Shown here piece by piece: positions 17,861 through 35,760 of a stretch of 38,000 nucleotides of DNA (the first letter of the stretch is position 1; every line of letters begins with the position of its first letter). Source of the stretch: a virus; IMG/VR virus record IMGVR_UViG_3300039008_000162, positions 1-38,000 of that record; one strand, written 5' to 3'. The notes below the pieces were generated by a model that did no database searches, was not told the origin of the DNA, and worked only from the letters and a program-made list of their open reading frames with translations. The position numbers and the translations under genes were made by a program.

Positions 17861-19420
17861 CTAGCACCATCCTGATGTATCTGTTACTGGTTGCGGTTTG
17901 GCGTGTACTATTGTTCCACCGGACATCATTTCAAACCCCATAGCGAACGTCTGGAATGCGTCAGCACCGTTGGAGTTAATGTCATGCAGCGGGTGTGATT
18001 GATATGCCCCTGTGCGCGGATTGTATGCCTTGCGATAGTTCTTGAGACGATCAAGCCCCGTGGCACAATGCTCCTCATCAAACCAGCACTGTGGTAAAAT
18101 ACGGCGGGCAGCTTCAATGGAATCTCGCTTATCTTGAATACGGGGAACCGCTACAAAGCTAATCCCCTTTTCTGCTGCGGACTCTTTTCGAGTCTTACCT
18201 GTAGCCATCTCCTGCACTTCAATATCGTGCGGGGCATAATGCCCTCCATAGTTGTAGCCCTTCTCGCGCAGCTTATTTGCATAAAACCCAAGCCCTTCAT
18301 GATTATTCTCATAATAATCGATCACTCTAACTTCCCGCCCAACAAGCTGGACAAACCAGATCGCCATACAATCGTTCATGCCCAAATCCCAAAAGGTATA
18401 GGTCAGCGCTCCTTCCTGTACGGGAACCTTAGTGATCTGCCTGCGCTCGTAGAGCTTCATGAATTCTGTACGGAAGTAAGCGCCTTCGATAGATTTTTCA
18501 AAGGCTTCTTCAGGGGTGGCAGGGTATTCGCGCTTCATGTCTGCGCCAAGGTTCTGAGCCTTCAAGGCGTACCATGCTTTTTGTGCTGGATGCAGTCCGA
18601 TTTGATGCTTGGCGTTAAGCTCATCAAAATAGCCTGCCATGTCCTGCGGAATTGCTACGGGGTGTTGCTCTCTAATGACGTATTCAGGGTTCTTCCACCA
18701 AGGGAAAAAGAAAAACTTGTAATCCAGATGAGTCAGCTTTGCTTCCTGCCGCGCCAACTCCTGCCCCCGCTCGCAGTAATCGTAAAAATATCCCTGCTGC
18801 CCCTCTGCTGTTGACTCAATGGACACCATACCGTCTTGTGGGACAGCTTCGATTGCCCCCGTGACGATCTCCTTTGCCCGGTCAGGACGCTCTGCACAAA
18901 TTTTTCCGAACTCTGAAATATGCAAATACTGCAATGTACCGGAGCGAAATGAAGTACCCACTCGGATTGAAGAGCCGTTCTTAAACTCGAGCATCTTTGC
19001 CTGCGAACGCACGGTGGGAATGGCATCACGAATTGCAGGAGCCAACTGGTCATAGGCAAAAGTTATTTTATTAAAAATTGCTTCAGCCGCATCAAGGTCT
19101 TGGGCTATCAGTCCGCACTTTATGTTGTTTCCAAACAGCGCTGCATCAAGCTCAAGCATGGTCATAAAGGTGGTAAAGCCAAGCTGCCGCGCTTTTAAGA
19201 TGACGTTGCGAAACCACCGTTCATTATAAAATGTTTCTTGCGCCCAATTAAAACGAAACCGCACCACCTTGCCGTTTTTATCCTGAATCCAGTACAGGTT
19301 ATTTAAACGCCAGCGGCGATTGTCCAAACACTCCACAAACACTCTTTCCTGCTGCGCTTTGGGAAGAGCGGTAATGGACTCAATGAATGGAAACTGTTCT
19401 GCCGACTGCGCCTTAATCAT
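17861..19420 (-). CDS. terL: Terminase large subunit
   Basis: Walker-A-like ILKARQLGFTT and Walker-B-like GLIAQD. The C-terminal RNaseH-like nuclease has FWDLGMND and GGHYAPHD. Confidence 0.85.
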   Translation of the reverse strand: MIKAQSAEQFPFIESITALPKAQQERVFVECLDNRRWRLNNLYWIQDKNGKVVRFRFNWAQETFYNERWFRNVILKARQLGFTTFMTMLELDAALFGNNIKCGLIAQDLDAAEAIFNKITFAYDQLAPAIRDAIPTVRSQAKMLEFKNGSSIRVGTSFRSGTLQYLHISEFGKICAERPDRAKEIVTGAIEAVPQDGMVSIESTAEGQQGYFYDYCERGQELARQEAKLTHLDYKFFFFPWWKNPEYVIREQHPVAIPQDMAGYFDELNAKHQIGLHPAQKAWYALKAQNLGADMKREYPATPEEAFEKSIEGAYFRTEFMKLYERRQITKVPVQEGALTYTFWDLGMNDCMAIWFVQLVGREVRVIDYYENNHEGLGFYANKLREKGYNYGGHYAPHDIEVQEMATGKTRKESAAEKGISFVAVPRIQDKRDSIEAARRILPQCWFDEEHCATGLDRLKNYRKAYNPRTGAYQSHPLHDINSNGADAFQTFAMGFEMMSGGTIVHAKPQPVTDTSGWC

Positions 19421-19871
19421 CTATGCAACTCCTGCTGTTGCCGCAGACTCCCTGAATAGCATCTTCAATAACATGCAGTTCATGCTCATGTTTCTCCGGT
19501 GAATACAACCCCTTCACTTTTAAAGCCATGTCCAGAGTCTTGCGCTGCACCTCAAGGGCTTCGACTTCAATCATGTCTTTTACTTCACCCTTCTCTGCAA
19601 ACATCTTCGTTTCTTTGGCATCAAGGAGCTGCACGAGCTTTTGTTTCAGCACGCTATCAGAAAGTCCCTCTTCTTCTAGCCATGTATCTATACGAGACTG
19701 AAGAGCCTTTTTATTCCGATAGCCAATTTCTGAAAGATTCGCGTCGTTCTTCCCACTGTACCCAGCAGCCCGTGCTGCATTGGTGGCATGCATAAACGTA
19801 GAACTGCCTCGGTCAAGATACGCCGCCAGCCACAGGCGTTGCTTTGGTGTCATGCCTTTTTTCTTAGCCAT
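19413..19871 (-). CDS. terS: Terminase small subunit
   Basis: From the internal Met: MAKKKGMTPKQRLWLAAYLDRGSSTFMHATNAARAAGYS, matching the Terminase_2-type HTH signature (TPKQ..F...Y....NAT.AA..AGYS). Confidence 0.75.
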   Translation of the reverse strand: MAKKKGMTPKQRLWLAAYLDRGSSTFMHATNAARAAGYSGKNDANLSEIGYRNKKALQSRIDTWLEEEGLSDSVLKQKLVQLLDAKETKMFAEKGEVKDMIEVEALEVQRKTLDMALKVKGLYSPEKHEHELHVIEDAIQGVCGNSRSCIDD

Positions 19872-20211
19872 TTGTGCGCTCCTCAAGACGGATAACTTTC
19901 TCTTTGGTGGCATCCACCTTTTTTTCCAGCTTCCCCACTTCGGTTTTTGTTGCATAGGTTGAAGCGTTTGAGAGCTGGCATGTATGCCTGCGCTCCGCCT
20001 CTTCATCTAGGCGCGCATGAACCTTGCCAATCTCGACGCGGGACTGCCGAAACTCTTCTTTAATATCTAGTGATAATTGAGTGAATTGGCTTTGTCGCGT
20101 TTCATCACGCTCATCCTGCGTATTCATCATCCGGCGTAACGAAAAACCTACCCATAATAACAGTAACGACAACACAGCTCCGGCTAATCCCGTGATAATC
20201 GGTTCATTCAT
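19864..20211 (-). CDS. N-terminally membrane-anchored coiled-coil protein; first gene of the late operon
   Basis: Start at MNEPIITGLAGAVLSLLLLWVGF with a GAGGTG SD. One TM helix followed by a charged helical region. Confidence 0.55.
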   Translation of the reverse strand: MNEPIITGLAGAVLSLLLLWVGFSLRRMMNTQDERDETRQSQFTQLSLDIKEEFRQSRVEIGKVHARLDEEAERRHTCQLSNASTYATKTEVGKLEKKVDATKEKVIRLEERTNG

Positions 20212-20790: not shown

Positions 20791-21141
20791 ATGCCCGGTG
20801 TAAGAGAAGCCTTTGAGAAAGCGTTAAAGGACAAGTTCACTAAATTTTTTCTTTTTATTGTTAAGACTCTTCTAATACTTCTCACGATACGAATCGTCTC
20901 AGCGAACATCCAGCCGGATATGGCACAGCTTGCTTGGTTCGGCATTGTGCTCAAACTGATGTTATGCGGTGTTGCCGTAATCGGCTTGAAGGCGGTCAAT
21001 GTACTGTTCCATGCCATTCGTGGGCGCAACAGAAAAGCACTCATTGATACCATACAGGAGAACCCCATTGCGACGTCTATTTATGTTAGCGGCAATAGCC
21101 TTGCTGCTGCCCTTGTGTTTGGTCTCATACTCTCAAGCTGA
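20791..21141 (+). CDS. Holin-like membrane protein (about 3 TM)
   Basis: GGAGG SD at 20781. Three hydrophobic helices. Immediately upstream of, and overlapping, the lysin gene. Confidence 0.55.
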   Translation: MPGVREAFEKALKDKFTKFFLFIVKTLLILLTIRIVSANIQPDMAQLAWFGIVLKLMLCGVAVIGLKAVNVLFHAIRGRNRKALIDTIQENPIATSIYVSGNSLAAALVFGLILSS

Positions 21142-22226: not shown

Positions 22227-23168
22227 TTATGGCTCATATTTAATTCTTAGGTATTTTTGAGAAGGGTACTTCCCGTCTATTGTTTTGCATATTTTTTTAC
22301 CTTCAAGCGTTCCGTAAGGTGTATCTTTTAACGCTGAATCAATTTCTACTCTGTATGTTTTAGGGTTAATTTTGAGTAGCTTTTTATCAAACAGATTATG
22401 CAAATCAGCGCGGAGCAAAATTCCATTAGCCCGTCGATTATTGCCATCTTCATTATGATTTTGGATATGACAAGCATCGAGAGCATGATGCGGTGTCGTT
22501 CCTGTAATTGCACATCGATCGGCATACGCTCTTCTTAATACCCATCTAAATTTCCATTGGTTTATTCGAATTCTCGCGCGACGGTTCGCATACCTCTCTG
22601 GGTCATTCAACGCCTCATCTTCATAAAAAGAGCTAGTTTTAATAGGTTGATGATGCTTAACATAGCAAACCTCAATCAATCTAGCGAGCTTGGTAATAAG
22701 TTCACGCCACCCACCGTTTTCAACCAACAAATATCCTGTTGCAGGGCGATCATTACCAGCCCCCGTTACTTCCTTGCAATTTAATACATACTCTCGATAA
22801 TCTTCAGGAAAATCTTGAACTTCACCCAATTGCTCCTCGTACTCATCACACATTCTTTGGGGACGCCGAAGATACCACTGAAACTTGTCTCCCACAGGAC
22901 GAAGTAAAGCTAAGTTCAGCTGAAAGAGTCTATCGCCTGCATTATTATGCTTGCTCCCTATCTTTGGAATCAGGTAGAACGGCAGCTTCCAGTTTGAACC
23001 CGGTCCCCACTTTTGAAAGTGAATTGAATTGCCATTAGGCAAGTCCAACCGCTGGTAACAAATACCATCGTCTACATCTACAAGACATCCATCATCTAAG
23101 GCATCTTTTAAACCTTCCATTATGCTATAGCCAAGACCAGCTAATTCGTCATAGACCCCTTCACTCAT
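22227..23168 (-). CDS. HNH (HNH_2-type) nuclease with an uncharacterised ~200-aa N-terminal domain
   Basis: The C-terminus CAITGTTPHHALDACHIQNHNEDGNNRRANGILLRADLHNLFDKKLL matches the HNH_2 pattern (C.itg...l.aaHI...NGl.LradlH.lFD). Confidence 0.75.
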   Translation of the reverse strand: MSEGVYDELAGLGYSIMEGLKDALDDGCLVDVDDGICYQRLDLPNGNSIHFQKWGPGSNWKLPFYLIPKIGSKHNNAGDRLFQLNLALLRPVGDKFQWYLRRPQRMCDEYEEQLGEVQDFPEDYREYVLNCKEVTGAGNDRPATGYLLVENGGWRELITKLARLIEVCYVKHHQPIKTSSFYEDEALNDPERYANRRARIRINQWKFRWVLRRAYADRCAITGTTPHHALDACHIQNHNEDGNNRRANGILLRADLHNLFDKKLLKINPKTYRVEIDSALKDTPYGTLEGKKICKTIDGKYPSQKYLRIKYEP

Positions 23169-23505: not shown

Positions 23506-23561
23506 TGGGGGTACATTTTGGGGTACGTCGTGATATGCTCAAAATCTTGGGGGTACATTTT
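23506..23561 (+). promoter_or_regulatory. Direct repeats TGGGGGTACATTTT (x2, plus a degenerate third), candidate integrase arm-type binding sites
   Basis: Identical 14-mers at 23506..23519 and 23548..23561, with GGGGTACGT at 23520..23528. They lie between the att core and the int coding region. Confidence 0.5.
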
Positions 23562-24761
23562 CATAAAAGCCTGAAACCCACGGGAGACGCCACTTTGCTA
23601 ACAGAATCAAAAATACGAAACCTCAAACCGGAAGCGAAAACAAAACGCTATTTCGATGGGCACGGCCTGTATTTGAAAGTCCGAAAGAATGGTTCTAAAT
23701 ACTGGCGCTGGAAGTATCGTTTTGGTGGAAAAGAAAAGCTACTTGCCTTCGGAGTGTACCCAACAGTCACGCTCAAGGCTGCACGCTTTAAACGAGACGA
23801 CGCCCGCAGAACGCTACTCTCCGGTGCCGACTCCGCCATTGTCAAAAATCAACAAACCACCGCGCCAACCTTTCAAGCAATAGCCGAGCAATGGCTTGCA
23901 CGCCAAACGCACTGGGCAGCAAACCATCGACGCACAGTTGTACTACGACTCCACAAGGCCATCTACAATACTATTGGCTCCGTCCCAATAACAGAATTGC
24001 AGCCTATCGATTTTCTCACAGCGTTACGGCGCATTGAAAGCAGAGGCTCGCACGTGACTGCGCACAAGGTTAAGGGCGTATGTTCGCAGATATGCCGTTT
24101 TGCGGTCGCAGCTTGCATAATTCCAAGCGATCCCACCCGCGACCTTAAAGGAGCGCTTACAACGCCTACACACGGTAAATTTTCTGCATTCACCACACCG
24201 CAGCAAGCCGGAGAAGTTATGCGCGCCCTTCGCAGCTACAACGGCTATGTTGTTTCAAAATTTGCTCTGCTACTTACCGCCTATACTTTTCCCAGACAAA
24301 AGGAGCTGCGCCACGCTGAGTGGACTGAAATAGATCTGCAGCGCGCTCTATGGATAGCACCCGCAGAAAAAATGAAAATGAAACGCGAACACGTTGTGCC
24401 GCTCTCCACCCAGTCGCTCGACCTGATCCGCACGCTGCAAACAGTCACCGGTGGTGGCAAATATCTTTTTCCATCTGTTCGCACAGCATCGCGCCCTATG
24501 AGTGAAGCAACTTGCTTGGCTGCCCTACGCCGTATGAGATTTACTAAAGAAGAAATAACAGCGCATGGCTTTCGCGCCATGGCATCGTCAATTTTGAATG
24601 AAGCAGGCTACAATCCAGATGTAATAGAAATGCAGCTGGCGCATGCTCCGGCTAACAAAATTCGTGCAGCATACAACCGCGCTCAGTACCTGCCAGAGCG
24701 ATGCAAATTAATGCAAGACTGGGCAGACATGTTAGACGCCTTCGAATCGCAGGAAAGCTAG
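23535..24761 (+). CDS. int: P4-type tyrosine integrase (DUF4102 N-terminal domain)
   Basis: LTESKIRNLKPE..KRYFDGHGLYLKV..NGSKYWRWKYRFGGKEKLLAFGVYP, then HGFRAMASS and LAHAPANKIRAAYNRAQYLPER. The true start may be an internal TTG near 23594. Confidence 0.9.
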   Translation: MLKILGVHFHKSLKPTGDATLLTESKIRNLKPEAKTKRYFDGHGLYLKVRKNGSKYWRWKYRFGGKEKLLAFGVYPTVTLKAARFKRDDARRTLLSGADSAIVKNQQTTAPTFQAIAEQWLARQTHWAANHRRTVVLRLHKAIYNTIGSVPITELQPIDFLTALRRIESRGSHVTAHKVKGVCSQICRFAVAACIIPSDPTRDLKGALTTPTHGKFSAFTTPQQAGEVMRALRSYNGYVVSKFALLLTAYTFPRQKELRHAEWTEIDLQRALWIAPAEKMKMKREHVVPLSTQSLDLIRTLQTVTGGGKYLFPSVRTASRPMSEATCLAALRRMRFTKEEITAHGFRAMASSILNEAGYNPDVIEMQLAHAPANKIRAAYNRAQYLPERCKLMQDWADMLDAFESQES

Positions 24762-24852
24762 GCTAGATGCGGCATTGCAGGCAGCGAATAGAAACACGCT
24801 TGCATAGCGCATTTCTGTTTGTGGCTTGAAGATTCAAACAAAAAAACAAGAC

Positions 24853-24890
24853 AAGCTCATAACTTTCGGCAAGTTATGAGCTTTTTCTTT
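24853..24890 (+). terminator. Rho-independent terminator downstream of int
   Basis: Perfect 13-bp stem AAGCTCATAACTT/AAGTTATGAGCTT with a 5-nt loop, followed by a T-run. Confidence 0.8.
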
Positions 24891-25203
24891 TATCGCAAGC
24901 AGTTGACTCTTTTGCACTACTTGGCAAAACATTGCAAAAAGTGCAATTGGCTATTCCATCATAAAACCCAGTACTGGCGGGCTCTGGCACACTGTTTTGC
25001 ACCCTTCGCTAATTGCAAAAAAATGACAAAAAAATGCTCGAAGGCGGGAGCGAAGGAGTGTTTTTGATTCTAAGATATACTTTTTTCACTTACATCTCGA
25101 CACCCTATTGCACAGATCCCTCAAAAAGCGCACAGTCCCTTGCTGCATACATGCTTTAACATTCTACGCTGGCAACTCACGCTACTACGAGGGACAAATA
25201 ATT

Positions 25204-26019
25204 ATGACATTATCAACGCCATCACTTCCGAAGACTAAAGCCGACACATCATACGACTCAGAATTAATGAAACTTTCTCACTATCAAAAGTATCCAAATA
25301 TGATTCCTTGGATTGGTGAATATTACTCTTCTTTTTCTCCCAAGATATTTGTCATTGGCGAGAGCCATTATTTAGACAAAGGTGATACATATCACCATGC
25401 TGCTGAAGATTGGTATGCTGGTATTCCAATTGAAAAACGTGCTAACAAAGGTTGGTACAGCACTAGAGAAATCATCGGGTCAAATGTTGAAAAAATAGCC
25501 AATAACGGCAAGTGGAGACTGAAATCTCATTCTATTTATCGCAATATTGATTCAGCTCTAAAAGAATTTATTCCAGCATTAACCTACACTCCTTCAGCAT
25601 TTACCCATATTGCGTTTATGAACTACTTTCAACGCCCCGCTCAAGTTACTGGTGACTCGATTAAGGTCACCGAACTCGACAGGAAAATTAGCTATGATGT
25701 TTGCTTAACAGTTGCCAAGCAACTTCGCCCAGACCTTATTGTTTTTACAAGCTCTCTTGCATTTAGAACCGCAAAAAAATCTGGATTCATAAATGAGCTA
25801 GCTGACAACGGGGCACTTGTCGGTGCTGTCCCTCATCCTAGTTGCCCGTGGTGGTATCGAAAAAATAAAAAAGGTCTTACGGGAAAAGAAAAATTTAAAA
25901 ACTACTTAGATCAAGGTAGGGGACTTTTCATTTGCTTTCTCTTTCTATTCAGTAATCCGTTCTCCCGCTCCATCAAAATGGGCGGCGGCATCGTCTACGG
26001 CTTTTTCCATGCTTTTTAG
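25204..26019 (+). CDS. Uracil-DNA-glycosylase-superfamily-like protein (divergent)
   Basis: Start at MTLSTPS with a GAGGGA SD. Three motifs appear in UDG-like order and spacing: KIFVIGESHY (cf. GE.PG), IAFMNYFQRP, VPHPSCPWW (cf. HPS). The last ~30 aa run antisense into the next gene and may not be native. Confidence 0.4.
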   Translation: MTLSTPSLPKTKADTSYDSELMKLSHYQKYPNMIPWIGEYYSSFSPKIFVIGESHYLDKGDTYHHAAEDWYAGIPIEKRANKGWYSTREIIGSNVEKIANNGKWRLKSHSIYRNIDSALKEFIPALTYTPSAFTHIAFMNYFQRPAQVTGDSIKVTELDRKISYDVCLTVAKQLRPDLIVFTSSLAFRTAKKSGFINELADNGALVGAVPHPSCPWWYRKNKKGLTGKEKFKNYLDQGRGLFICFLFLFSNPFSRSIKMGGGIVYGFFHAF

Positions 26020-26133
26020 GATGAAAATTAGCTCTGGGTACTTATCGCCGAATTCTTCATGCATCATGTTTAGGGAACGGGCGATGTTGTAGAGAGTCAT
26101 TACGTGATCTGTTTGCTCTACTTGCTGACTCAT
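25945..26133 (-). CDS. Small helical protein, unknown function
   Basis: 62 aa. Its start overlaps the upstream stop (ATGA). GC is higher than in the surrounding cargo. Confidence 0.45.
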   Translation of the reverse strand: MSQQVEQTDHVMTLYNIARSLNMMHEEFGDKYPELIFILKSMEKAVDDAAAHFDGAGERITE

Positions 26134-26315
26134 GCTGCTACCCTCCGCTCTACGGTGTTAGCGAGCTCGATGAGCTTGTCTGCAATGTAGTCCAGCGCGA
26201 GGCTGCTTTCTGCTGTGGAAGTGTCTTTGCGGATCTGTTGGAGCGTTGCAGCTGCGTCGCGCAGCTCGTCCATGCTTGGAAGCATTCCGGTTGGAATGGT
26301 GGTAGATTGTGCCAT
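26130..26315 (-). CDS. Small helical protein, unknown function
   Basis: 61 aa with an AGGAG SD upstream. Translationally coupled to 25945..26133. Confidence 0.5.
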   Translation of the reverse strand: MAQSTTIPTGMLPSMDELRDAAATLQQIRKDTSTAESSLALDYIADKLIELANTVERRVAA

Positions 26316-26385
26316 TTGGCAACTCCTGAGTGTTGTTTGAGTTTATGAGAAGTTGTCCATAACCAATAAAAAAGGTCGGGAGTTC

Positions 26386-26604
26386 TCAAACCGCACTCAG
26401 CACGGCAGAAGGCTTTCCCCTTGCGGGTATTATATGACCTTCGTACTCCCGACCAAAATATTTGGCGAATATGTAATTCAAGATGCTTCCGATCACAAGA
26501 TGCACTATTCCTAGGGACTGTGCATTTTGGTCATTAGACGCAAAAAAAAACCACTTCTTACGGGAGCGGATAAGCCGCTGAGTGTCAAAGGTGTTTGAGA
26601 TCAC
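26386..26604 (-). CDS. Doubtful 72-aa ORF
   Basis: Open frame only. It contains a T9 run, and its 3' third lies inside a long hairpin structure. Confidence 0.2.
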   Translation of the reverse strand: MISNTFDTQRLIRSRKKWFFFASNDQNAQSLGIVHLVIGSILNYIFAKYFGREYEGHIIPARGKPSAVLSAV

Positions 26605-26678
26605 CTAGGGGAGAATATGCCGAAGTTTGCAAGCAGGGTCAAGTAGGAAAGAAATTTCAGGAAACGTAATATGCTATC

Positions 26679-27647
26679 TTGAAAGAGTTTTTAGAAAGAC
26701 ATACAATTCTCAAAAATCCACTAGGAGCCTTCTCTGTGCAATATTCCTTCTTAAATAAAACAAAAATTCTTTTTCTACGAATTACAAAATTTTCAATAGC
26801 TGCGTCACTCATTTTTATCCTCCTAGTACTCCTTAGTGTAATCTCTCCAGATATAAATACTCTTGGTAAGAAAGTGATTACAATAGTAAGTTCAGATGAA
26901 GAGCTTTTAATCTCTATCGTGCTAATATCTTGTGGAATCGTAGGAACATTTTTAGCTTTTTATCAAAATGTTTTTCAACAAGCTGATCTCGAGCGAAAGA
27001 AAGACATCCATATTACATATGCAAAAAACAACAGGCCTGACTCCGAAAAAAGAACAGAACAAACTTCTGAACCATATACTCAGCAATCACTTTTTGACCA
27101 AATATCACAAAGCTTGACTCAACAAGTCTTACTTTTTGATAGAAAAGCTTCGATAATGCTTGAGCAAGGAATTAAAATTGCTATCTCAGGCGTTTTACTT
27201 CTCTTAGCAACAATCATTCTATGGAACTATTTTCTACAATATTTAGGTAGCGCTGCAAGAACAGAACACTTTATAGGGATAGTTTCGTGCAGTTTAGTTT
27301 TTGTTTTTCTTCAAGCACTTGCGGTCTGGTGCTTAAAACAACACAGAGCATACGTTGATGCTTCTCTTTACGTCACCAAAATTCGTTCTATTTTTGAACG
27401 TAAAATGCAGGCTTATCTTTTAATCAAAGAATTTTCTCAAGGTAAAGAAGGCTACCATAAACTACTCGACAATTTCTTAACCGACATTGAATGGCCACCA
27501 GAACCACTAAGCGCAAAACAACAAACTAGCTATGCAAAAGAAGCTGCTGCAACATTAACAGAAGTTACAAAGTCTCTCCGCGTACTTCATGCAGCACACG
27601 ATAAGCCTGCCAGTTCACATCGCAGATATCCTAATCCATCGAGATAA
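26679..27647 (+). CDS. Multi-pass membrane protein (two 2-TM pairs separated by a charged linker)
   Basis: 322 aa with a TTG start. Hydrophobic helices lie near aa 38-58, 78-98, 163-185 and 198-222, followed by a helical tail. AT-rich. Confidence 0.6.
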   Translation: MKEFLERHTILKNPLGAFSVQYSFLNKTKILFLRITKFSIAASLIFILLVLLSVISPDINTLGKKVITIVSSDEELLISIVLISCGIVGTFLAFYQNVFQQADLERKKDIHITYAKNNRPDSEKRTEQTSEPYTQQSLFDQISQSLTQQVLLFDRKASIMLEQGIKIAISGVLLLLATIILWNYFLQYLGSAARTEHFIGIVSCSLVFVFLQALAVWCLKQHRAYVDASLYVTKIRSIFERKMQAYLLIKEFSQGKEGYHKLLDNFLTDIEWPPEPLSAKQQTSYAKEAAATLTEVTKSLRVLHAAHDKPASSHRRYPNPSR

Positions 27648-27650
27648 CTA

Positions 27651-28373
27651 ATGTCGCTAAACTTCATCAAAAAATACTCAGAAATCCTCTGTCTCGGAGG
27701 ATTTCTTCTTTATTGGCTTTGGGATACGAAGATATCGCCTTTCACAATCAACCTTAGCTCCAGCGAATGGGCTAGCCTCGCAAATGCTTCTGCCTCATTA
27801 GTCCTTGCAAGTATTGGTATTTGGGGTGTTAATAGTTGGAAAGGGGAGTACAAACAAAAAGAACAATATAAAGCTGCTGTTAATTTCGGCGAACATGCAA
27901 AAAACTCTGTTGATGCACTCAGACATATTGCGAGTAACTTTTACCTACCACATGAGATACCCAGCGATATGTCAAATTCAGTTGATAGGCATAGTGAGAT
28001 AATTATACATATTTTAAATTCTTATATGACAACATTTAGCAAACTCTATACTTATCTTAACCGCTCTCAAATCGTATTAGGTGATGATGCCAGCAGCATC
28101 TACAATAAAATCCATCAATCGATACATGATATTAAAGAGCATTGCTCAAACCATTACGACATTGGAGAAAACATTAAAATGGTAAGGGCACAGGCAAACA
28201 TTCATGCGCCAGGCATCAGTCTTGAAGCAAAACAGCAAAGCTCCTACGCGCTCATTCGAGAGCTTGAAGATAAAAAACGCCTACTAAGAAAAAATTTCTT
28301 TAAAGAACTAAAAGAAGAAATTGCTATCATCCAAAATTTAATCGATAAACTATTAGCAGAAAATACAATTTAA
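27651..28373 (+). CDS. 2-TM membrane protein with a C-terminal helical domain
   Basis: 240 aa, starting 4 nt after the previous stop. TM helices lie near aa 12-30 and 42-62, followed by WKGEYKQKEQYKAA... and a coiled-coil end. Confidence 0.65.
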   Translation: MSLNFIKKYSEILCLGGFLLYWLWDTKISPFTINLSSSEWASLANASASLVLASIGIWGVNSWKGEYKQKEQYKAAVNFGEHAKNSVDALRHIASNFYLPHEIPSDMSNSVDRHSEIIIHILNSYMTTFSKLYTYLNRSQIVLGDDASSIYNKIHQSIHDIKEHCSNHYDIGENIKMVRAQANIHAPGISLEAKQQSSYALIRELEDKKRLLRKNFFKELKEEIAIIQNLIDKLLAENTI

Positions 28374-28380
28374 AATGAAA

Positions 28381-28418
28381 CCTCCCGCCTCATTGAGACG
28401 GGAGGTTTTTTATTTTTA
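28381..28418 (+). terminator. Rho-independent terminator of the two-gene membrane operon
   Basis: CCTCCCG / CGGGAGG stem followed by TTTTTTATTTTT. Confidence 0.8.
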
Positions 28419-28509
28419 ACATCAAATTTTAAACCGATGCCCACATCTAGATTATCTGAGACTCAAGGGGAACCAGTTCAACTAAGCTTAAAATAATACA
28501 AGTGACAAA

Positions 28510-29337
28510 CTACTCACCACGCTCAATTGAAGACAACCCTTCATTAATCCTTGTCATAAATTGACCACTCATGTGAGGTTTATACTCTGTACGTCTTTTA
28601 CTGTCTGCAAGGGCAACAGTATCTTTAAATGCATCAACTCTTACTGAGTCAATATAGTTATACAGGTCAACTTCAGCACCATTATTTGCATCAATTAACA
28701 ATTTTATAGCATTAAAACTGCTCATCAAAACAGGATGCATCTTTTCGAGCGCTTTAGGGTTATGAGAAAGCATAAAAGCCCATCGTGCCCTTGTAGATGT
28801 ATGACTTTTAGCAACAGCAACGTTATAGGTATCAAGACCTTGCATTTCATAAACAAAAATATTTATCGCCTTACGAAGTTCCTTAACATGCTCGCGACGC
28901 GCTTTTAACTGACGTTGTTTTTTACGCTCTGCTCTTGCATGCTCTTCTTGCCTTGACTGAGCATTACGGTTTTTCTCATTTTCATCTTTTTTAAACGTAC
29001 GCTCCTTCGAGTTCTCCTCAATAATAAGGGCTCGGTCCTTCGCATTCTCTTCTATTGTTAATGCTCGGTCTTTCGCGCTCTCTTCAACAAAAGCCCCACG
29101 GTTCTTTCCACCTTCTTCCACGGTTAACGCTCGATCTTTGGCATTCTCTTCAATAATTACGGCTCGATCTTTAGCATTTTCCTCGATAGTTAACGCACGC
29201 CCCTTCGCATTCTCTTCTGCAGCAAGTAATTGAGCCGCTTTCGCTCGTGGTGCGACATGTACCACTTCCAGATAGTAATTACCAACGACAGCTGCAATAA
29301 TCGCTACTAAGCATGAAACTAAAATTTTTTTCATCAA
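28510..29337 (-). CDS. Membrane-anchored protein with eight tandem 11-residue repeats (EENAKDRALTI)
   Basis: N-terminal TM helix MMKKILVSCLVAIIAAVVGNYY. Repeats span aa 41-128 (nt 28954..29217, 33-nt period), followed by a basic segment and a ~120-aa C-terminal domain. Confidence 0.7.
   Translation of the reverse strand: MMKKILVSCLVAIIAAVVGNYYLEVVHVAPRAKAAQLLAAEENAKGRALTIEENAKDRAVIIEENAKDRALTVEEGGKNRGAFVEESAKDRALTIEENAKDRALIIEENSKERTFKKDENEKNRNAQSRQEEHARAERKKQRQLKARREHVKELRKAINIFVYEMQGLDTYNVAVAKSHTSTRARWAFMLSHNPKALEKMHPVLMSSFNAIKLLIDANNGAEVDLYNYIDSVRVDAFKDTVALADSKRRTEYKPHMSGQFMTRINEGLSSIERGE
28954..29217 (-). repeat. Eight in-frame, diverged 33-bp tandem repeats inside a CDS
   Basis: The units encode EENAKGRALTI / EENAKDRAVII / EENAKDRALTV / EEGGKNRGAFV / EESAKDRALTI / EENAKDRALII / EENSKERTFKK / DENEKNRNAQS. 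Confidence 0.9.
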
Positions 29338-29423
29338 TTCTCCTTTGAAAGAATAATATTAGAGATCAAGGGGAGAATATTACCTAACCTTCAATCAATG
29401 CAATACTTTTACTTATAACTGTT

Positions 29424-30599
29424 TTACCCCCTAATCCCCTCAACACGCTCCCGACACTCTTCAACCCTCTCCCCATATCCTGCAATTGCTCCGCTCTGAT
29501 GCGGTGCGTTCGCAGTGCTGCCGGATACTGGGTGCGTGTGACTGGCTAGTACCATTGCGAGGTCATGCAGCGCCTTCCACACCTTATCCATTTCATCCAA
29601 CAGCGATACGCCACCAGCTGCGCCGCTGCTTCCAATTTTAATCTTTGGCGCGGCTATGGTGAACACGCTCCCTGCAGAGTGGGTGGTTGTCGATTTCGAC
29701 GCCACAGAATGCGCGCCGCCGACTGTTACATCGCTATTACCTTCTATAGACTGCGTAGCGTTGCCGCTGATCTGCTGCGTGGAGTTGCCGCCGATTGATT
29801 CTGTACTGGTTCCGGCGATGGTCTGGGTAAAGTTTTGCCCGACGGTATTGGAGTCTGAACCTGCTATGTTGCTTGTTCGGCTGCCCTTCACTTCTGTTTG
29901 ATGATCTTTGCCGATGCCCTCGCGCTTATTGTCTGCCACTATGCAGCGTAGATCACGGGCTGTGGTCAAATTCAGGCTATCCACGGCTGCTATATTTGCT
30001 CGCCCGCCAGATGTAATATTCATGGCACCCAGAGCTTCTAGCGTCTTTACGCCGCCGACTTCTTCAGTGCTATTTTCTGCAATGGTTCGCACCTCTCGCG
30101 AAAGCTCATCTACTGCTTCCACACAGCGTCGCACGTGGCGCAGGCTTTCATCCGTTATCGCAGCCTCACTGGTTCGCAGCCAGTTTCCTTGCGTATCCGC
30201 ACTCTGGTAGACTGTGGCAGACTGTTGCCAACGCAAGTCGCCGTTAGTTAACTGTGGTAGAGAAAGCCCCATGGGGTAGATTTGACGAATCACCGGATGA
30301 TCGGCTCTACCATAGGCAAAGCCCAGAACAACCAGCGCGCCTGCTTCTGGAAACGCAAACAGACCAGACTCCATGCCTGCACCTACTGGCACCGGCAGCG
30401 GTACAGCCTCGTAAATGGGGAAGGCTTTATCACGCGCACCTTCCGGCGTCAGAATCTCTACATCCACCGCATATCGAGGTCTAAACCGCTCGCTCGTGCC
30501 ACCTTGCTCCGGAGCATCACACACCTTTACCACCCGCGCATATCGATCAAGATGCAGCCCTGCTGTCAGTTCTGGAAAAGTTCGCAGCACCACGCGCAT
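29424..30599 (-). CDS. Baseplate central spike (gpV/VgrG-like OB fold plus beta-helix)
   Basis: OB-fold-like GLFAFPEAGALVVLGFAYGRADHPVI. G/S/T/N-rich beta-helical repeats (TQTIAGTSTESIGGNSTQQISGNATQSIEGNS). HTHP near the tip resembles the His-rich metal site of the P2 gpV apex. Start in a TAATG overlap. Confidence 0.65.
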   Translation of the reverse strand: MRVVLRTFPELTAGLHLDRYARVVKVCDAPEQGGTSERFRPRYAVDVEILTPEGARDKAFPIYEAVPLPVPVGAGMESGLFAFPEAGALVVLGFAYGRADHPVIRQIYPMGLSLPQLTNGDLRWQQSATVYQSADTQGNWLRTSEAAITDESLRHVRRCVEAVDELSREVRTIAENSTEEVGGVKTLEALGAMNITSGGRANIAAVDSLNLTTARDLRCIVADNKREGIGKDHQTEVKGSRTSNIAGSDSNTVGQNFTQTIAGTSTESIGGNSTQQISGNATQSIEGNSDVTVGGAHSVASKSTTTHSAGSVFTIAAPKIKIGSSGAAGGVSLLDEMDKVWKALHDLAMVLASHTHPVSGSTANAPHQSGAIAGYGERVEECRERVEGIRG

Positions 30600-31288
30600 T
30601 ATGAGTTCTCGCACTGAATCACCATTTCATGCCCTGTTAACTGGAGTGATGTGAGGCGCTGCCCGTTGAGCAACACACCCGCACGGAGCGCAGGAATTGC
30701 CGGAAGTACTTTTGCGCCGGCTGCTGTGACGCCCGTAAAAAACTTTTCTTCTATATCCACTGATCGCGATGCCCAGCAGCTATGCTGCCATGAGCCTACA
30801 AAGACGGAACCATCCGGTTGCGGCTGCCAGAAATAGTCCTCTATGCCGAACACAACCCCGAGCTGATCCATGCCATGGTAGCCGCTACCGAGTGTTTGAA
30901 AATGCGGAATGCGGCGCGTTGCGTACGGCTGCTCCGGAACTGTGAAGGCGAGATTTGTTTTGTCGCTGTAGGCGCACAGCACATCGTGCAAGGTGGGGTG
31001 GCGCAAGCTTACGGGAAGTTGAAAACTGAGGGCGGCTGCCATTTCTCTGCAAAAAATCTTTTGTGTGGCAGCATCTACCGTGTGACTGTTTTCAATGTAG
31101 CCGGAGAAAAATAGCTGATCTTTGTTCTGGTTCGAATAGCCAAGCCGCAGCTGCACTATGCCGCTAAGCGGTTTTACCGACTGCACACGAAACAAAGCGC
31201 GACCGGAAGTGTTGGTTTCCAGCCGCACATCATCTTCCACCAGATCAAACAGCTTACCGCCAATGTAGAGAGACTTGCGCAGCTTCAT
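30599..31288 (-). CDS. Baseplate/tail-associated protein, unknown function
   Basis: 229-aa ORF immediately upstream of, and coupled to, the spike gene. Confidence 0.5.
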   Translation of the reverse strand: MKLRKSLYIGGKLFDLVEDDVRLETNTSGRALFRVQSVKPLSGIVQLRLGYSNQNKDQLFFSGYIENSHTVDAATQKIFCREMAAALSFQLPVSLRHPTLHDVLCAYSDKTNLAFTVPEQPYATRRIPHFQTLGSGYHGMDQLGVVFGIEDYFWQPQPDGSVFVGSWQHSCWASRSVDIEEKFFTGVTAAGAKVLPAIPALRAGVLLNGQRLTSLQLTGHEMVIQCENS

Positions 31289-31797
31289 GCCAGTGCCTCG
31301 TCTATTTTATGCAGAATGCTTTCCAGCATTGTTTGCGGTTCCTGAACGGCAACTGCGGTTTGTGGCTCTGCATCCGGCTGCTTTGGCGCTATGGCTGTGC
31401 CTTCGCTCTTTTGGGCTACTGGCTCCGGTGTTTTTTCACGCTTCTCGGCTTTCTCCGGAACGCTTAAATATTCACGTAGCGTGAACGCCACAGCCCACGC
31501 TTTCACCCCGTCTATGGGCTTCCAACTGAAGCGATCAGACACGCGCACCTGCTTAATCCCTGCCGCATTCGCTTCACGATTAGTGATGTTGTACACCTTG
31601 CCCTCGCCATGCGCTCCACGTGCCTCTATGACGCGGATAAGGTCGCGCAGCTGCCTTGCATCTTCACATCGAATATTGGTTGCTACATTCAGCTTTTTCG
31701 GCTTCACGCCTTTATCCACGCGCGCTGTTCCGCTTGTTTCTCCGGAGAGATCTTCTGTGCGAATTTCCAGTTCTCCGGAAACAGTCAAAGCGAGCAT
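31285..31797 (-). CDS. Tail-associated protein, unknown function
   Basis: 170-aa ORF with a beta-rich N-terminal 115 aa and a charged P/E/K/A-rich tail. ATGA overlap with the next gene. Confidence 0.5.
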   Translation of the reverse strand: MLALTVSGELEIRTEDLSGETSGTARVDKGVKPKKLNVATNIRCEDARQLRDLIRVIEARGAHGEGKVYNITNREANAAGIKQVRVSDRFSWKPIDGVKAWAVAFTLREYLSVPEKAEKREKTPEPVAQKSEGTAIAPKQPDAEPQTAVAVQEPQTMLESILHKIDEALA

Positions 31798-32484
31798 CCG
31801 CGAGGGCTTTCAAAATAGAACGGTCCACCGGTCTACCGAGCATATCCTGCGGCTTGTTTGCCCATTCGCCAAGCAAGTTGCCTGTTGCAACGCGCATAGG
31901 AGAATCTGCCACTGTCACAGCGCGATTACACAAACGCCCGACGTAAGTGCCGAGCTCGTGGCCCCACAGATATGGAACAACAGACACAGTCTCTGCGCGC
32001 AAACCGCTAAGCATATCCACAACAGCTTTTATGTAAGTTGCCCATGTGTCAGCTAGTGAATTCAACTTACGGAAAGCAGCAAGAAACACCGTCGGGCGCA
32101 TGTACTCTGCCATTACCTCGGCTTGTTTGGTTTGCATCGCTTCCACTTCTGTAGATTCGGTGATTGGATCTGTCAGAACAAAGCCTTCTACGCTCTTCTG
32201 CTCCATGACGTAATCCACCGCTTCTTTCCACGTAAGCACACCATCGAGCACAAAGACGCAGGCATTCCAGTTTTGACCGGCATTCACTTTTGCAGCTTCA
32301 ACCTGCGTTTTCAGCACACTGGTGCTTTTGCCCAAAACGGCATCGAGGTCGGTGTCTGTATTCACCATGTGCAAGCTGCCGCGCCCAGTATCTACCAGAC
32401 CAATGAAGCAAAAAAACGTTCCACTTCCTTAAACGGTCCCTGATTACGGTTAAGGCGGTTTACTTGCACTATAGGGGTTGCCAT
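31712..32484 (-). pseudogene. DUF2586-like phage tail protein, frameshifted at a homopolymer and apparently shortened
   Basis: ATG at 32484 (AAGAGGTG SD) gives MATPIVQVNRLNRNQGPFKEVERFF. Reading continues as CFIGLVDTGRGSLHMVNTDTDLDAVLG only if the A7 run at 32410..32416 (T7 on the coding strand) had one extra base. Confidence 0.55.
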
Positions 32485-32493
32485 TTGCACCTC

Positions 32494-33214
32494 TTATTTC
32501 TTGAGTTGTTCTATGGTTCGGCGGGCTAAATCGTGTAGCATTTCTTTTTTGTCTTCTGGCGTTGCACCAAGAAACGGACGGGCTGCGGGCTTACTCTCCC
32601 AGCGGGAGGAATGCGTATTGTTGCCACTTAGCAGCTTTATCAGCTTTCCTGCCTGCCCCTGCGTCAAGTTCTCGCAAATCCACTTAATGGAAACACGTTT
32701 CAGGCGAGATCCTTTGCCACGCTTCTTTTTGACAGAAACACGATAACCGGCAGCGTTAAGCGCTTTGGCTTGAGCTCGAGTAGCAGGCGCCTTGTAGTTC
32801 GGCGTTCCATATTGCTCTGCAGCTCTTGCAGCACTCCATGGTTCTGCAATCCCGTGCTGGTGCCTATAAGGCAACTTTGCCAACACCTCGATTCCCATAC
32901 GCAAGCTCTGCTGCATCATGTCCACGCCCAAACACCTGCAACCCCTTTTTCCCATTTGGCTTCGCTAAATTCTTCAGCATGCGGCGCTTGATTCTAGAAT
33001 CCTTGCGCGGAGCCATTCGGCGTCCTTCTACAGTGCGCTGCTGCCGAATATTCAACGCTGCCTGCTTACGCACAGTGCGCGCCATGGTCATGATGATCCT
33101 GCGCTGCTCGCGTGGCTCCATTGCCAGTATTTGCAGCTGCTTTCTAAACTTGAGGCGGGATTTTCTATCTACAGAAAATTCAAGCGGGCTAGTTGTCGGC
33201 ATGGGCTTTACCAT
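32494..33214 (-). pseudogene. Virion morphogenesis/tail completion protein (P2 GpS / Mu G-like), frameshifted
   Basis: The N-terminal part (32864..33214) ends ...ELAYGNRGVGKVAL*. The conserved RHQHG and ARPFLG motifs continue in another frame (32494..32955). The shift lies near 32868..32880, with no homopolymer. Confidence 0.6.
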
Positions 33215-33775
33215 CGAAGCCGGCTAATTCTTCAGCAACATCGATGGGCACATCTGCCACACGCCAACGCTTGCCGTTAAAAGGAATGCTGCCGTTTTCA
33301 TCCGGCACTATCTACAGCGGTTCTTCAAACTCTATGGCGAGATCAACATCCGCGGTAAAGTCATCGTTCAAGCTTGCATCTACTTCCGGATCTGCAAGAC
33401 CGGTATGGTCGCATTCTTTGTCGTGATCATGCAGCCAGCCCATTACGAGGAGAAGCAATACGCTACTGCTGCCGTTAAAGGCTTCTACCTGAATGAGCGC
33501 GTCATACTTGAATACGCCCAGTTCCACGCCATGTCCTGAATCGCGCCCTGTGGGGCGAGTGCCTTATCGAGCAAAGCGCCAAGCTGCTGATTACCAATCA
33601 AGCCCATAGGAGCTACCTTGAACGTATCCGGTGCTTCCAGCTCTGCTTCTGCCTGTTCACGCGCTGCGCGTATATTCTCTTGGTGAGAAAGCATTAAGCT
33701 CATAAAATTCTCCAAATCAAAATTATCTAAAACTGAGCCAGCTTTGTGCAGTGCAAGGAGCGTAGCAACTGACAA
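33189..33775 (-). pseudogene. Tail completion GpR-like gene remnant (frame change plus in-frame TAG)
   Basis: LGVFKYDALIQVEAFNGSSSVLLLLVMGWLHDH...DLAIEFEEPL resembles P2 GpR. TAG at 33312..33314 is followed by 40 more open codons (IVPDENGSIPFNGKRWRV...) ending at 33189, overlapping the GpS-like start. The N-terminal part sits in a different frame with only a TTG start. Confidence 0.5.
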
Positions 33776-33852
33776 GCTCGAAGCGTATCAAGACATACGT
33801 GAGAGTTTGGCAGTTGTGAGCAACGCAGCAATGTGCGGAGCTGGCATCAGTT

Positions 33853-34881
33853 TTACACCCAGCCATCGCCGGCTTCATTCGGCAGCTTCACATTATCAAA
33901 CTCAACTGCAACCAACTGCTCTACGTCCTCAACTACGTAGCCCTCGTTACGACTGTTGAAGTCTTCCACGCGGTCTTTTTCCGGCTTGTCTTTGATGTGA
34001 CGACGCCATTTACCGTCCTGATAATAGATGGAGAGGTTCTTGTGGTTAGTGATGGTAAGACCGCGTCCTGAGTAGTTAGACGGAGTCTCCCACGGCAGCC
34101 CGCCGATGGTTGCCATGGCTGTGTTCATGGCGTTCTTTTCTGTCGGAGTACCTTTAACGGCTAAAAGCAATGCGGCGCGCTCGCGCGCAATAAGCTCATC
34201 ACCCACCATTACGACCAAGCCTTTGCGCTTCCATTTCGGGATGCCCTGCAGCATGTCGTTAACGGCAAGATCAAGGTTGGCGTAGTCGCCACCTTCGCCA
34301 ATGCGAATTTCGCCGGCTACTTTACCCTGAGAGATAATGTTCTCCGGCTTGCGGTCGCGCATGTACTGGAACCAACCAGGGAGCACATCCTGCATGAGCG
34401 GGTATTTAGAAAGATCTGTATCTTTGGCGGCGTGTGTACCGTACCAACCAACAAGCTCGCGGTCGTTTGCAATCTGCGACTGCACGTTGCTTGTGTAGCG
34501 ATCGTGGAAATCTGGGAACTTCGCCCACACGTCCATGGTCTTATAGGTCATGTACACATCACTGTTCACTTGGTGCAGCTGGTACTCGTACGGCTCCATA
34601 CCAAGCACATCGCGCGGCATGCGCTCTTTACCGTCCACACTGGTATCTGTTCGACCAGAAACGGGACCGGTAACGCAGCCTAAAATATTCTGCCCCTGCA
34701 GCTCGTCTACTGGGATAACGTTGATCTTCGGCAGGAAGGTAGACTGCTCTACAATCTTATCTTGAAGCTTTTGCTGAACTGTCGGGGTAAGAGAAAACTG
34801 CTGCTGAACGGAAGGAACGCCGTAGCCTTCGCAATAAGCTTTGCAAAGGGCATTGAAGGCTTGTCTTGTTAATGTATTCAA
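33853..34881 (-). CDS. P2-family major capsid protein (GpN-like)
   Basis: MNTLTRQAFNALCKAYCEGYGVPSVQQQFSLTPTVQQKLQDKIVEQSTFLPKINVIPVDELQGQ...SGRTDTS matches the Phage_cap_P2 N-terminal signature. 342 aa. Confidence 0.85.
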   Translation of the reverse strand: MNTLTRQAFNALCKAYCEGYGVPSVQQQFSLTPTVQQKLQDKIVEQSTFLPKINVIPVDELQGQNILGCVTGPVSGRTDTSVDGKERMPRDVLGMEPYEYQLHQVNSDVYMTYKTMDVWAKFPDFHDRYTSNVQSQIANDRELVGWYGTHAAKDTDLSKYPLMQDVLPGWFQYMRDRKPENIISQGKVAGEIRIGEGGDYANLDLAVNDMLQGIPKWKRKGLVVMVGDELIARERAALLLAVKGTPTEKNAMNTAMATIGGLPWETPSNYSGRGLTITNHKNLSIYYQDGKWRRHIKDKPEKDRVEDFNSRNEGYVVEDVEQLVAVEFDNVKLPNEAGDGWV

Positions 34882-34890
34882 CCGTGCCCC

Positions 34891-35760
34891 CTAAATGAGT
34901 GCGTTGCCGCTGGCAGGGTTGGCGTTTTCCGGAACGGATGTTCCGCCGGCTGCACCTTCCATGCGCTGCGCCATTGCGCCGAACTGCTCAGAAAGTTTTG
35001 TCATGCTGTTTACAAGCGGCTCCAGCTGCGCGGAGAAGTTATTCTCCGGTTCGGTCTTAACCGGTTCCTGCGCCAGTTCCGGTGCTTGCGGCGCTGCCTG
35101 CTGGCTTTCAAACTTATTTGCCAAGCCGTTAACGGCGCTTTGGGTATCGGTTAAAGCATTAAGCAGCTGCTTAAACTGGTCGTCCTTCATGCTTTCCTCT
35201 TGTGTTTCTGGTTCTGTGATATTGCTGCCGAACAGCGCAGCGCCCAGACGCTGGAATAAAGAATAGGCTTCTGGCTTTTGTTCGTCCGGCTGCGCTGCGG
35301 CAGCAAAAAAGGATGGTAGCTCTACGCCGGCGTAAAATTCTCCGGCTTGCTCGCTATGCTTGGTACGCTGTGCGGTGAACAGGCGAATCTGCTCGGTTCC
35401 GAGCGAGGCAGGTGTGTCGGTAATGGCAATACCGGCTAGGTACGCCTTACCGGAGTTAGCAAAGTTGTCCCAAATTTCTATGGAAGAATAGAGCTTCTGC
35501 CCTTCCTTATTCTTCTCCAAAAAACGCCAGCCCGGCTTAAATTTGGCGTATAGCTCCACCAGTTCCCCGTTTTCGCGTGCTTCCACTGCGGCTACGGTTC
35601 CGTGGTTGCCAAAAAAGCGTTCGTGCTCCGGCCAAATTACGGCTTCGTACGTGCTTGGACTGTAGGATTCTGCAATCTCGCGTAAATCCTGTGGCGCAAT
35701 TTCGCGCCCGTCCATTGTAGTGCCGGACTGTGCAACTTTGATAAACTCTGTGTATAACAT
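34891..35760 (-). CDS. P2-family capsid scaffolding protein (GpO-like)
   Basis: From the internal Met: MLYTEFIKVAQSGTTMDGREIAPQDLREIAESYSPSTYEAVIWPEH...AYLAGIAITDTPASLG, the classic GpO signature. Confidence 0.85.
   Translation of the reverse strand: MLYTEFIKVAQSGTTMDGREIAPQDLREIAESYSPSTYEAVIWPEHERFFGNHGTVAAVEARENGELVELYAKFKPGWRFLEKNKEGQKLYSSIEIWDNFANSGKAYLAGIAITDTPASLGTEQIRLFTAQRTKHSEQAGEFYAGVELPSFFAAAAQPDEQKPEAYSLFQRLGAALFGSNITEPETQEESMKDDQFKQLLNALTDTQSAVNGLANKFESQQAAPQAPELAQEPVKTEPENNFSAQLEPLVNSMTKLSEQFGAMAQRMEGAAGGTSVPENANPASGNALI

Follow-up and report, generated by a model that had tools for sequence, protein, structure and literature searches.

The stretch of viral DNA analyzed here, positions 1 to 38,000 of the IMG/VR record IMGVR_UViG_3300039008_000162 (hereafter the window), carries a two-gene operon, A-B, whose products are both predicted to be membrane proteins with large cytoplasmic helical parts, as the initial annotation of this DNA had proposed. 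According to our analysis, A-B is a moron, that is, accessory cargo of a temperate HP1/P2-like phage, and it shows all the defining features of one: its own promoter and terminator, a deviating base composition, a place between conserved phage genes and other content at that place in a related phage. Gene A belongs to a common prophage-end gene family that recurs in prophages and has gone without annotation. From this context we tentatively read A-B as an anti-phage abortive-infection membrane module in which A would be the effector and B the sensor or regulator, a reading that we hold to be possible rather than probable.

Organization of the A-B operon

The two same-strand open reading frames (ORFs) described initially, A at 26679..27647 and B at 27651..28373, are both present on the plus strand, and the strong terminator that they were said to share is real and lies directly after B (hairpin at 28378-28408). 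The 322-amino-acid (aa) form of protein A, read from TTG 26679, is most likely not the true one, as that TTG belongs to the -35 hexamer of the promoter. The operon contains the following features.

26679..26707, plus strand: sigma70-like promoter of A-B, with -35 TTGAAA at 26679-26684, a 17-nt spacer and -10 TACAAT at 26702-26707.
26736..27647, plus strand: gene A, recognized from its ORF, Shine-Dalgarno (SD) sequence, gene call P0001, transmembrane (TM) segments, 228-cluster family and purifying selection.
27651..28373, plus strand: gene B, recognized from its ORF, hydropathy, an alignment of 11 sequences and an AlphaFold2 (AF2) model.
27680..27706, plus strand: hairpin within B (codons 10-19), with a 12-bp stem and a T-rich tail, a terminator-like match.
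28378..28408, plus strand: intrinsic terminator at the operon end, with a 14-bp stem containing 8 GC pairs, followed by the T-run TTTTTATTTTT; the hairpin is bidirectional.

The start of A is most likely GTG 26736, which gives a protein of 303 aa, since the SD sequence AGGAG (26723-26727) ends 8 nt ahead of this codon and the database gene call P0001 for A is the same 303-aa form. The A-B promoter is the top-scoring promoter-like site within 24700-29500 (10/12 matches), and its -35 box and surroundings are kept at the DNA level in two homologous loci, L001 and L003, whose A genes begin downstream. Promoter-like sites overall were no more numerous than in shuffled sequences (11 found vs. 10.5 expected), so that the support for this promoter comes from its conservation and position.

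In the window, the stop codon of A is followed after three nucleotides by the ATG of B; in homologous loci the A stop and the B start overlap as TAATG. From this arrangement, translation of B is predicted to be coupled to that of A in 5/5 close-subfamily loci. The hairpin within B is conserved in the DNA of 5/5 A-B loci, also at synonymous sites, and in L008, where B has no upstream A, synonymous changes break it. This hairpin may serve as an intra-operon attenuator or an RNA-stability element.

Membrane topology and structural models

Kyte-Doolittle hydropathy found four hydrophobic segments in A, at 38-56, 76-94, 164-182 and 198-216 in the numbering of the 322-aa form, which bears out the two 2-TM hairpins and the charged linker proposed for this protein. 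The linker between the hairpins, charged and ~65 aa long, is predicted to be cytoplasmic. As a whole, A is predicted to be an inner-membrane protein with four TM segments, both termini on the cytoplasmic side and a cytoplasmic helical tail of ~105 aa. The N-terminal hairpin proposed for B stood in part: the second segment (40-60) is a robust TM segment, whereas the first (12-24) is weak, with 13 hydrophobic residues and a maximum Kyte-Doolittle value of 1.38. The charge distribution predicts that the non-membrane mass of A and B is almost wholly cytoplasmic, and the predicted periplasmic loops of both proteins measure ~20 aa at most.

Protein B (240 aa) is predicted to be membrane-anchored, with a juxtamembrane motif followed by a cytoplasmic helical bundle. 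The motif, G-[IV]-x-S-W-[KR]-x-E-x3-K, is invariant in the B family (11 sequences aligned), and the distant B relatives have a single TM segment. The AF2 model of B built from the 11 sequences is all helical, with a predicted local distance difference test (pLDDT) score of 81.5 and a predicted template-modeling (pTM) score of 0.65, and its second TM segment runs on into a long helix packing into the helical bundle. As modeled, B is a lineage-specific membrane-anchored helical bundle.

An internal duplication of A (TM1-2 against TM3-4) was unsupported, at an hhalign probability of 4.9%. The paralogy suggested earlier for the modules of the two proteins also found no support: an hhalign comparison of the profile of A (60 relatives) with that of B (11 relatives) gave a probability of 0.45% (E 0.13), and BLASTP of A against B returned a single 19-aa patch (P..L.AKQQ.SYA; E 0.01), which is missing from most B relatives.

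Linkage of the two genes and selection

Close relatives of A, and likewise of B, amount to a handful each. The two genes are adjacent in 5/5 loci of the close subfamily, namely the window, L001, L003, L004 and L005, in the last of which A appears split. L001 is a tRNA-adjacent non-phage island of Halodesulfovibrio spirochaetisodalis, and L003 is a prophage integrated beside the tmRNA gene. The expected co-conservation of the pair therefore holds for the close A subfamily but not beyond it: the wider A family is never found with B (0/62 further loci had a B relative adjacent), and one B subclade occurs without A. This subclade (L008 and L076) lies beside a divergently transcribed, unrelated TM-anchored helical protein, and in L008 it occupies the same prophage slot beside a tail spike gene. 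A search for B in viral contigs found none. In L072 and L073, a distant single-TM relative of B is encoded between a TIR protein, which matches the PADLOC model PDC-S66/ThsB-like (E 6e-55), and an Mrr-like protein (PDC-M58A); the layout in L072 (1590-4800) may represent an uncharacterized defense arrangement of a TIR protein and a TM protein.

Conservation along the pair is mosaic. In A, the fourth TM segment and the cytoplasmic tail keep ~0.8-0.9 amino-acid identity and the N-terminal half is near saturation (identity 0.1-0.4); in B, the same two levels are seen in the first 30 aa and in the C-terminal bundle, respectively. In the conserved A-B block, third-codon-position identity is only ~0.45-0.6 at an amino-acid identity of about 0.87. 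Because the third codon positions have diverged while the amino acids were kept, the alignments indicate that selection acts on the protein and that A and B are both real genes under purifying selection. A recent DNA transfer behind the conserved C-terminus of A and N-terminus of B was ruled out by the same divergence of synonymous sites. The mosaic is the pattern that would be expected for a conserved interaction or effector core combined with variable specificity parts.

The family of gene A

An exhaustive HMMER profile search placed 228 clusters (50% identity) in the A family at E<=1e-3, 214 of which reach 1e-10. Members are mostly 300-350 aa long, and the family signature is centered on TM3-TM4. 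It includes F-x-D-V-D after TM2, A-D-x-K-A-S-x-L-L-D-K-G before TM3, S-C-S plus a buried E in TM4 (the window lineage has Q in place of this E) and W-x-L-[KR]-Q-[YH]-[RK]-x-[FY]-V-D after TM4, the last being present in 136/151 representatives; D-I-x-W-P and S-F-A-K-E-A are further motifs. Five representatives carry extra N-terminal domains, namely SLFN_AlbA_2 (two), DUF4407 (two) and GIY-YIG (one). These fusions to AlbA_2 (Schlafen-type), GIY-YIG or DUF4407, predicted to be cytoplasmic, have what appears to be a sensor-plus-membrane-effector layout.

The family spans many phyla, with Bdellovibrio, Acinetobacter, Pseudomonas, Paenibacillus, Planctomycetes and Leptospira among the genomes that carry it, and it occurs in 33 IMG/VR contigs. 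In 11/17 viral contigs of >=30 kb the gene lies <=5 kb from a contig end (expected 3.8, P ~2e-4), where the ends are themselves predictions and some of the contigs are related to each other. In ten loci the A-family gene directly precedes and overlaps a large serine recombinase gene; in L064, a MiaB-like radical-SAM/TRAM gene stands on the side of A opposite the serine recombinase. Elsewhere, a tyrosine integrase is encoded 1-4 genes away, or the A-family gene directly follows UmuC. The complete Pseudomonas phage LPPA36 encodes an A-family protein upstream of a recombinase, all annotated as hypothetical; this protein was the sole match in the protein-mode searches, in which plasmids gave none, and a DNA-level search against Escherichia coli genomes and phages gave no match. 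Within two genes of the A relatives, neighbors are heterogeneous and of mobile-element type (Bro-N, HNH, Arc, resolvase, portal, Eco57I and Fic).

Such heterogeneous neighborhoods, with UmuC as a recurrent neighbor, would fit lysogenic conversion without a defense role, in which the pair would act on host physiology at the envelope or membrane, for instance on ion homeostasis or stress tolerance, and bring the lysogen an ecological benefit. Morons encode many sorts of host-fitness factor, and A and B contain no defense domain. However, no transporter-like fold or family match was found, a conservation pattern with one highly variable half per protein is unusual among membrane proteins of physiological function, and the AlbA_2 and GIY-YIG fusions, as well as the TIR neighborhood of the B relative, point to conflict systems. 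We consider this explanation distinctly unlikely.

The prophage cargo slot

The GC content of the 25-29 kb segment is 0.36-0.42, compared with 0.49-0.55 in its flanks, and the cargo is bounded by two phage genes.

23535..24761, plus strand: tyrosine integrase, left bound of the cargo (Pfam Arm-DNA-bind_3, Phage_int_M and Phage_integrase).
29424..30614, minus strand: gp5/gpV-like tail spike (baseplate hub), right bound (Pfam Gp5_trimer_C and Gp5_C; PHROG 4011, baseplate, E 2.6e-111).

In L003 a homologous integrase stands at the matching position, and the gene order is tmRNA, integrase, A-B cargo, spike and then P2/HP1-like baseplate and tail genes; the spike gene neighbors the cargo in L008 as well. 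The slot between the integrase and spike genes holds the A-B unit again in L003 and a different membrane-anchored cargo in L008. A cargo position of this kind in a prophage fits a role in defense or exclusion.

Multi-TM phage proteins with charged cytoplasmic tails could also be lysis proteins (holin, antiholin or spanin-like). However, A-B adjoins the integrase and runs in the opposite direction to the structural genes, no match to an endolysin family was recorded among the genes that flank the pair in the window, L003 and L001, and the pair also occurs in the non-phage island L001. In addition, 303 and 240 aa are well above the size of typical holins, and no PHROG lysis family was matched, which makes a lysis function very improbable. 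A-B is most probably neither a lysis cassette nor a housekeeping transporter, two alternatives that had been named at the outset.

Comparison with known systems

As noted initially, no enzymatic domain is present in A or B, according to scans of Pfam, PADLOC and PHROGs. Sequence profiles of the Protein Data Bank (PDB) gave no match for either protein. Scanned one by one, the 60 A relatives matched none of the curated families of Pfam, NCBIfam, PHROGs and PADLOC, with the exception of weak matches: CARF_TM in 5/60 (best E 1e-4), three "2TM effector" models of the cyclic-oligonucleotide-based anti-phage signaling system (CBASS) at ~1e-3, and DUF2207_C in 13 of the 60 scanned (best E 1.7e-6). The 11 B relatives had no significant family match and none in PADLOC.

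The membership of SLATT/DUF4231 or abortive-infection (Abi) families that the initial annotation had raised was not borne out, as neither A nor B matched such a family in Pfam (E<=0.1, a level at which A had no Pfam match of any kind) or PADLOC. SLATT_1-5, SLATT_fungal and DUF4231 are absent among the 25 most frequent of the 55 Pfam families matched by the 60 A relatives, a scope that leaves room for isolated matches of single members; the families that these relatives match most often include no Abi family either. The B relatives have no SLATT/DUF4231 match. Nucleotide-signaling sensors (SMODS, SLOG, TIR, CARF and SAVED) were found neither in the window nor in 89 neighbors of A relatives. The predicted core of A would resemble the SLATT/TM effectors of CBASS, Pycsar and type III CRISPR (CARF-TM) in its helix-TM-TM-helix layout, which is generic; some A relatives also carry sensor-like N-terminal domains, and there are the weak CARF_TM and 2TM effector matches. 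In contrast to these effectors, A has two extra TM segments and a conserved tail of ~100 aa, and no cyclase, CARF or SAVED partner is encoded nearby.

Lambda RexA/RexB, CarolAnn gp44/gp43 and Sbash gp30/gp31 are prophage exclusion systems, and in the RexAB-type model a sensor activates a membrane channel, with depolarization and abortive infection as the outcome (PMC6426606). Like them, A-B is a two-gene prophage unit with a 4-TM protein and a proposed sensor. The differences are that A, at 303 aa and with large cytoplasmic parts, exceeds RexB and gp43 (144-178 aa), that B is itself membrane-anchored, and that A-B adjoins the integrase with its own promoter, outside the repressor operon. No Pfam or PADLOC match to RexB or RexA/DUF4747 was found for A, B or their relatives, and the analogy to lambda RexAB and CarolAnn gp43/44 would be one of function without homology.

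T4 Imm and HK97 gp15 are superinfection-exclusion membrane proteins, and A and B are likewise phage-encoded inner-membrane proteins in an accessory position. P22 SieA is a prophage protein of the same kind (PMC10883804), and a Charlie prophage membrane protein is cited as a further example of exclusion (PMC6426606). An alternative is superinfection exclusion, in which A, with or without B, would block the entry of an incoming phage genome and the host cell would survive: prophage membrane proteins are a classical mechanism of exclusion (P22 SieA, PMC10883804), both A and B are predicted to reside in the inner membrane, and the moron anatomy and prophage-end location fit exclusion equally well. 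Set against this, A and B show no homology to SieA, Imm or gp15 and no similarity to known superinfection-exclusion proteins in PHROGs, and they are two co-conserved components whose conserved mass is predicted to be almost all cytoplasmic. Predicted periplasmic exposure is minimal (loops <= ~20 aa), with the most conserved residues and both large domains predicted on the cytoplasmic side, and the nucleic-acid-binding or nuclease N-terminal fusions in A relatives suit cytoplasmic sensing better. We judge exclusion by A-B to be unlikely.

The defense hotspots of P2-like prophages and P4-like satellites include systems of an unknown protein plus a transmembrane effector (bioRxiv 10.1101/2021.01.21.427644). 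The slot described here resembles them in being a variable cargo site at a fixed position with different membrane-protein units (window, L003 and L008), and differs in that it lies between the integrase and spike genes and that no PADLOC model matches its cargo. Overall, prophage membrane modules that protect the lysogen are a known kind of system, and the A and B families appear, from their sequences, to be unrelated to any characterized one.

Proposed role of A-B in anti-phage defense

Under the abortive-infection reading, A-B would be expressed from its own promoter in the lysogen, and the two proteins would form a small inner-membrane complex acting against superinfecting phages. In this complex, A would be the membrane effector, with the TM3-TM4 hairpin and its flanking cytoplasmic helices as the conserved core; its motifs are FDxKAS ahead of TM3, SCS with a buried E/Q in TM4 and W-x-L-K-Q-[YH]-R-x-[FY]-V-D past TM4. 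The conserved N-terminal anchor of B, together with the motif G-I-N-S-W-[KR]-x-E-Y-K, would hold B next to A, and the fast-evolving cytoplasmic helical bundle of B would be the sensor or gate. On a cytoplasmic cue of infection, A would then pass into a permeabilizing or depolarizing state.

Several observations led us to this reading. The pair has the anatomy of a moron and the A family is enriched at prophage ends, each protein combines a conserved core with a variable half, and the conserved mass is predicted to lie almost wholly in the cytoplasm. Sensor-like domains fused to the N-terminus of occasional A-family members, the weak similarity of A relatives to the TM effectors of CBASS and type III CRISPR, and the TIR neighborhood of one B relative are consistent with it as well.

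Other results weigh against it. Neither A nor B has a significant match in Pfam, NCBIfam, PADLOC or PHROGs, or any match to characterized defense proteins, the best matches in PADLOC-DB 2.0 being at E 0.034 for A and E 0.011 for B. The weak PADLOC matches of the A relatives could reflect TM composition. The wider A family lies in mobile-element and prophage neighborhoods rather than in clear defense islands, has no conserved partner gene and is usually solitary, and the TIR neighborhood of a B relative is a single case. The AF2 model of A, for which 4 sequences were used, reached a pLDDT of only 50 and is unreliable, and Foldseek of the B model against the PDB returned generic bundles only (best E 0.025, TM-score <=0.37).

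Divergent small genes and the sRNA-Xcc1 RNA

On the other side of the promoter, three elements are encoded divergently from A-B.

26366..26454, minus strand: sRNA-Xcc1 family RNA (Rfam RF02221, 66 bits vs. a gathering threshold of 53, E 6e-10, model positions 1-87/87).
26130..26315, minus strand: gene for a 61-aa soluble protein, divergent from A-B (85-97% amino-acid identity in L001 and L003).
25945..26133, minus strand: gene for a 62-aa soluble protein with a "YPEL" motif (73-81% identity in L001 and L003).

The RNA gene occupies the intergenic region from which the 61-aa gene and A diverge, at the same place as in L001 and L003, and the RNA is closed by the long-range stem GGTCGGGAG / CTCCCGACC, next to which a U-run follows. 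The 62-aa gene overlaps the 61-aa gene by 4 nt. The 62-aa protein had no match in the protein-mode searches, and neither small protein matched a PDB sequence profile. Inside the 61-aa gene, at ~26232-26310 (~26232-26291 in the narrower delimitation), ~65-80 nt are 98-100% identical at the DNA level among the window, L001 and L003, whereas identity falls to 73-85% in the coding DNA on either side. This stretch contains the palindromes GCAGCTGCGTCGCGCAGCTC and ATGCTTGGAAGCAT. The comparison suggests a constraint on the nucleic acid itself, such as an RNA structure or a binding site.

Island L001 contains sRNA-Xcc1 copies at 9647-9735, 16422-16514 and 20896-20983, all on the minus strand and with a small gene ~40-50 nt downstream of each. 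For the two extra copies, the product of this gene is a paralog of the 62-aa "YPEL" protein, and the repeated RNA looks like a cassette header. The same island also has a KAP NTPase gene. A general association of sRNA-Xcc1 with the A family was rejected, as the RNA occurs near the family in only one further locus, L048, among the 72 sources scanned.

The small genes and the RNA raise the question of an addiction or toxin-antitoxin-like unit, in which A would be a membrane toxin checked by B, or by the small proteins together with sRNA-Xcc1, and the unit would maintain the element rather than defend it against phages. The five-part block (sRNA-Xcc1, the 61-aa and 62-aa genes, A and B) is kept in the window phage, the L003 prophage and the non-phage island L001, and its gene organization is tight. 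Moreover, integron cassettes, islands and phages are the typical setting of sRNA-Xcc1 RNAs, with homologs reported in integrons, islands and APSE phages (PMC2996969; PMC12189769; bioRxiv 10.1101/2020.03.17.996009). However, beyond the scarcity of the RNA near the A family, the RNA in L001 tracks the small "YPEL" genes and not A-B, and pairing of sRNA-Xcc1 with the small-gene mRNA or the A leader was no better than in shuffled controls. A toxin requiring a cognate antidote would not be expected to stand alone, as the wider A family usually does, and we regard addiction as improbable.

Other features of the window

The window contains two different virion gene sets: an SU10-like module at 1-20000 (SU10_portal, Phage_capsid_4 and SU10_adaptor) and a P2/HP1-like set at 29400-38000 (gp5-like spike, HP1_ORF34, GpR, Phage_cap_P2, GPO and terminase). 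Their presence points either to two elements in tandem or to a hybrid of an unusual kind. The same content recurs in several samples, in contigs of 37.5-38.1 kb.

Around the integrase, an HNH_2 endonuclease gene (22227-23168, minus strand) lies just upstream. The exact 14-nt direct repeat TGGGGGTACATTTT occurs at 23506-23519 and 23548-23561, 42 nt apart and straddling the integrase start codon; these repeats may be candidate arm-type sites of the integrase or regulatory sites. A perfect 13-bp palindromic hairpin at 24853-24883, ~90 nt past the integrase stop, scores as a terminator on both strands and overlaps a sub-threshold match to the "trpB ncRNA motif" (34.8 bits vs. 59); it may terminate integrase transcription or belong to the attachment region. 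An ORF of 271-303 aa at 25108-26019 on the plus strand (271 aa in the database call), which lies between the integrase and the small genes, has no family match, is not conserved in L001 or L003 and is probably a separate cargo gene.

Convergent to A-B, a gene at 28510-29337 on the minus strand encodes a protein of 275 aa that starts with a TM anchor and ends in a helical domain, and for which no family match was found. It contains about six tandem 11-aa repeats (EENAKDRALTI), seen in the DNA as a 33-nt period at 29015-29212. The B homologs of L008 and L076 are flanked by proteins that are unrelated to this one but have the same architecture of a TM anchor plus a helical domain.

Significance

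A broader reading, which we offer as doubtful, is that the A family is a widespread, previously unrecognized prophage-end membrane effector, analogous but unrelated to SLATT proteins and RexB, that would be wired to interchangeable cytoplasmic sensors (B in the window; fused AlbA_2, GIY-YIG or DUF4407 elsewhere), and that in the present case would form part of a five-part mobile cassette with sRNA-Xcc1 and two small proteins.

If the defense role of A-B is true, the A family would add to the anti-phage repertoire of prophages a new family of ~228 clusters that is not in Pfam, NCBIfam, PHROGs or PADLOC, and the pair would provide a simple two-protein model in which a membrane effector is linked to a sensor that evolves rapidly. 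In the HP1/P2-like group, the fixed slot flanked by the integrase and spike genes could be a hotspot for further cargo. Even without a role in defense, the A family, as a common inhabitant of prophage ends, deserves a name and a phenotype.

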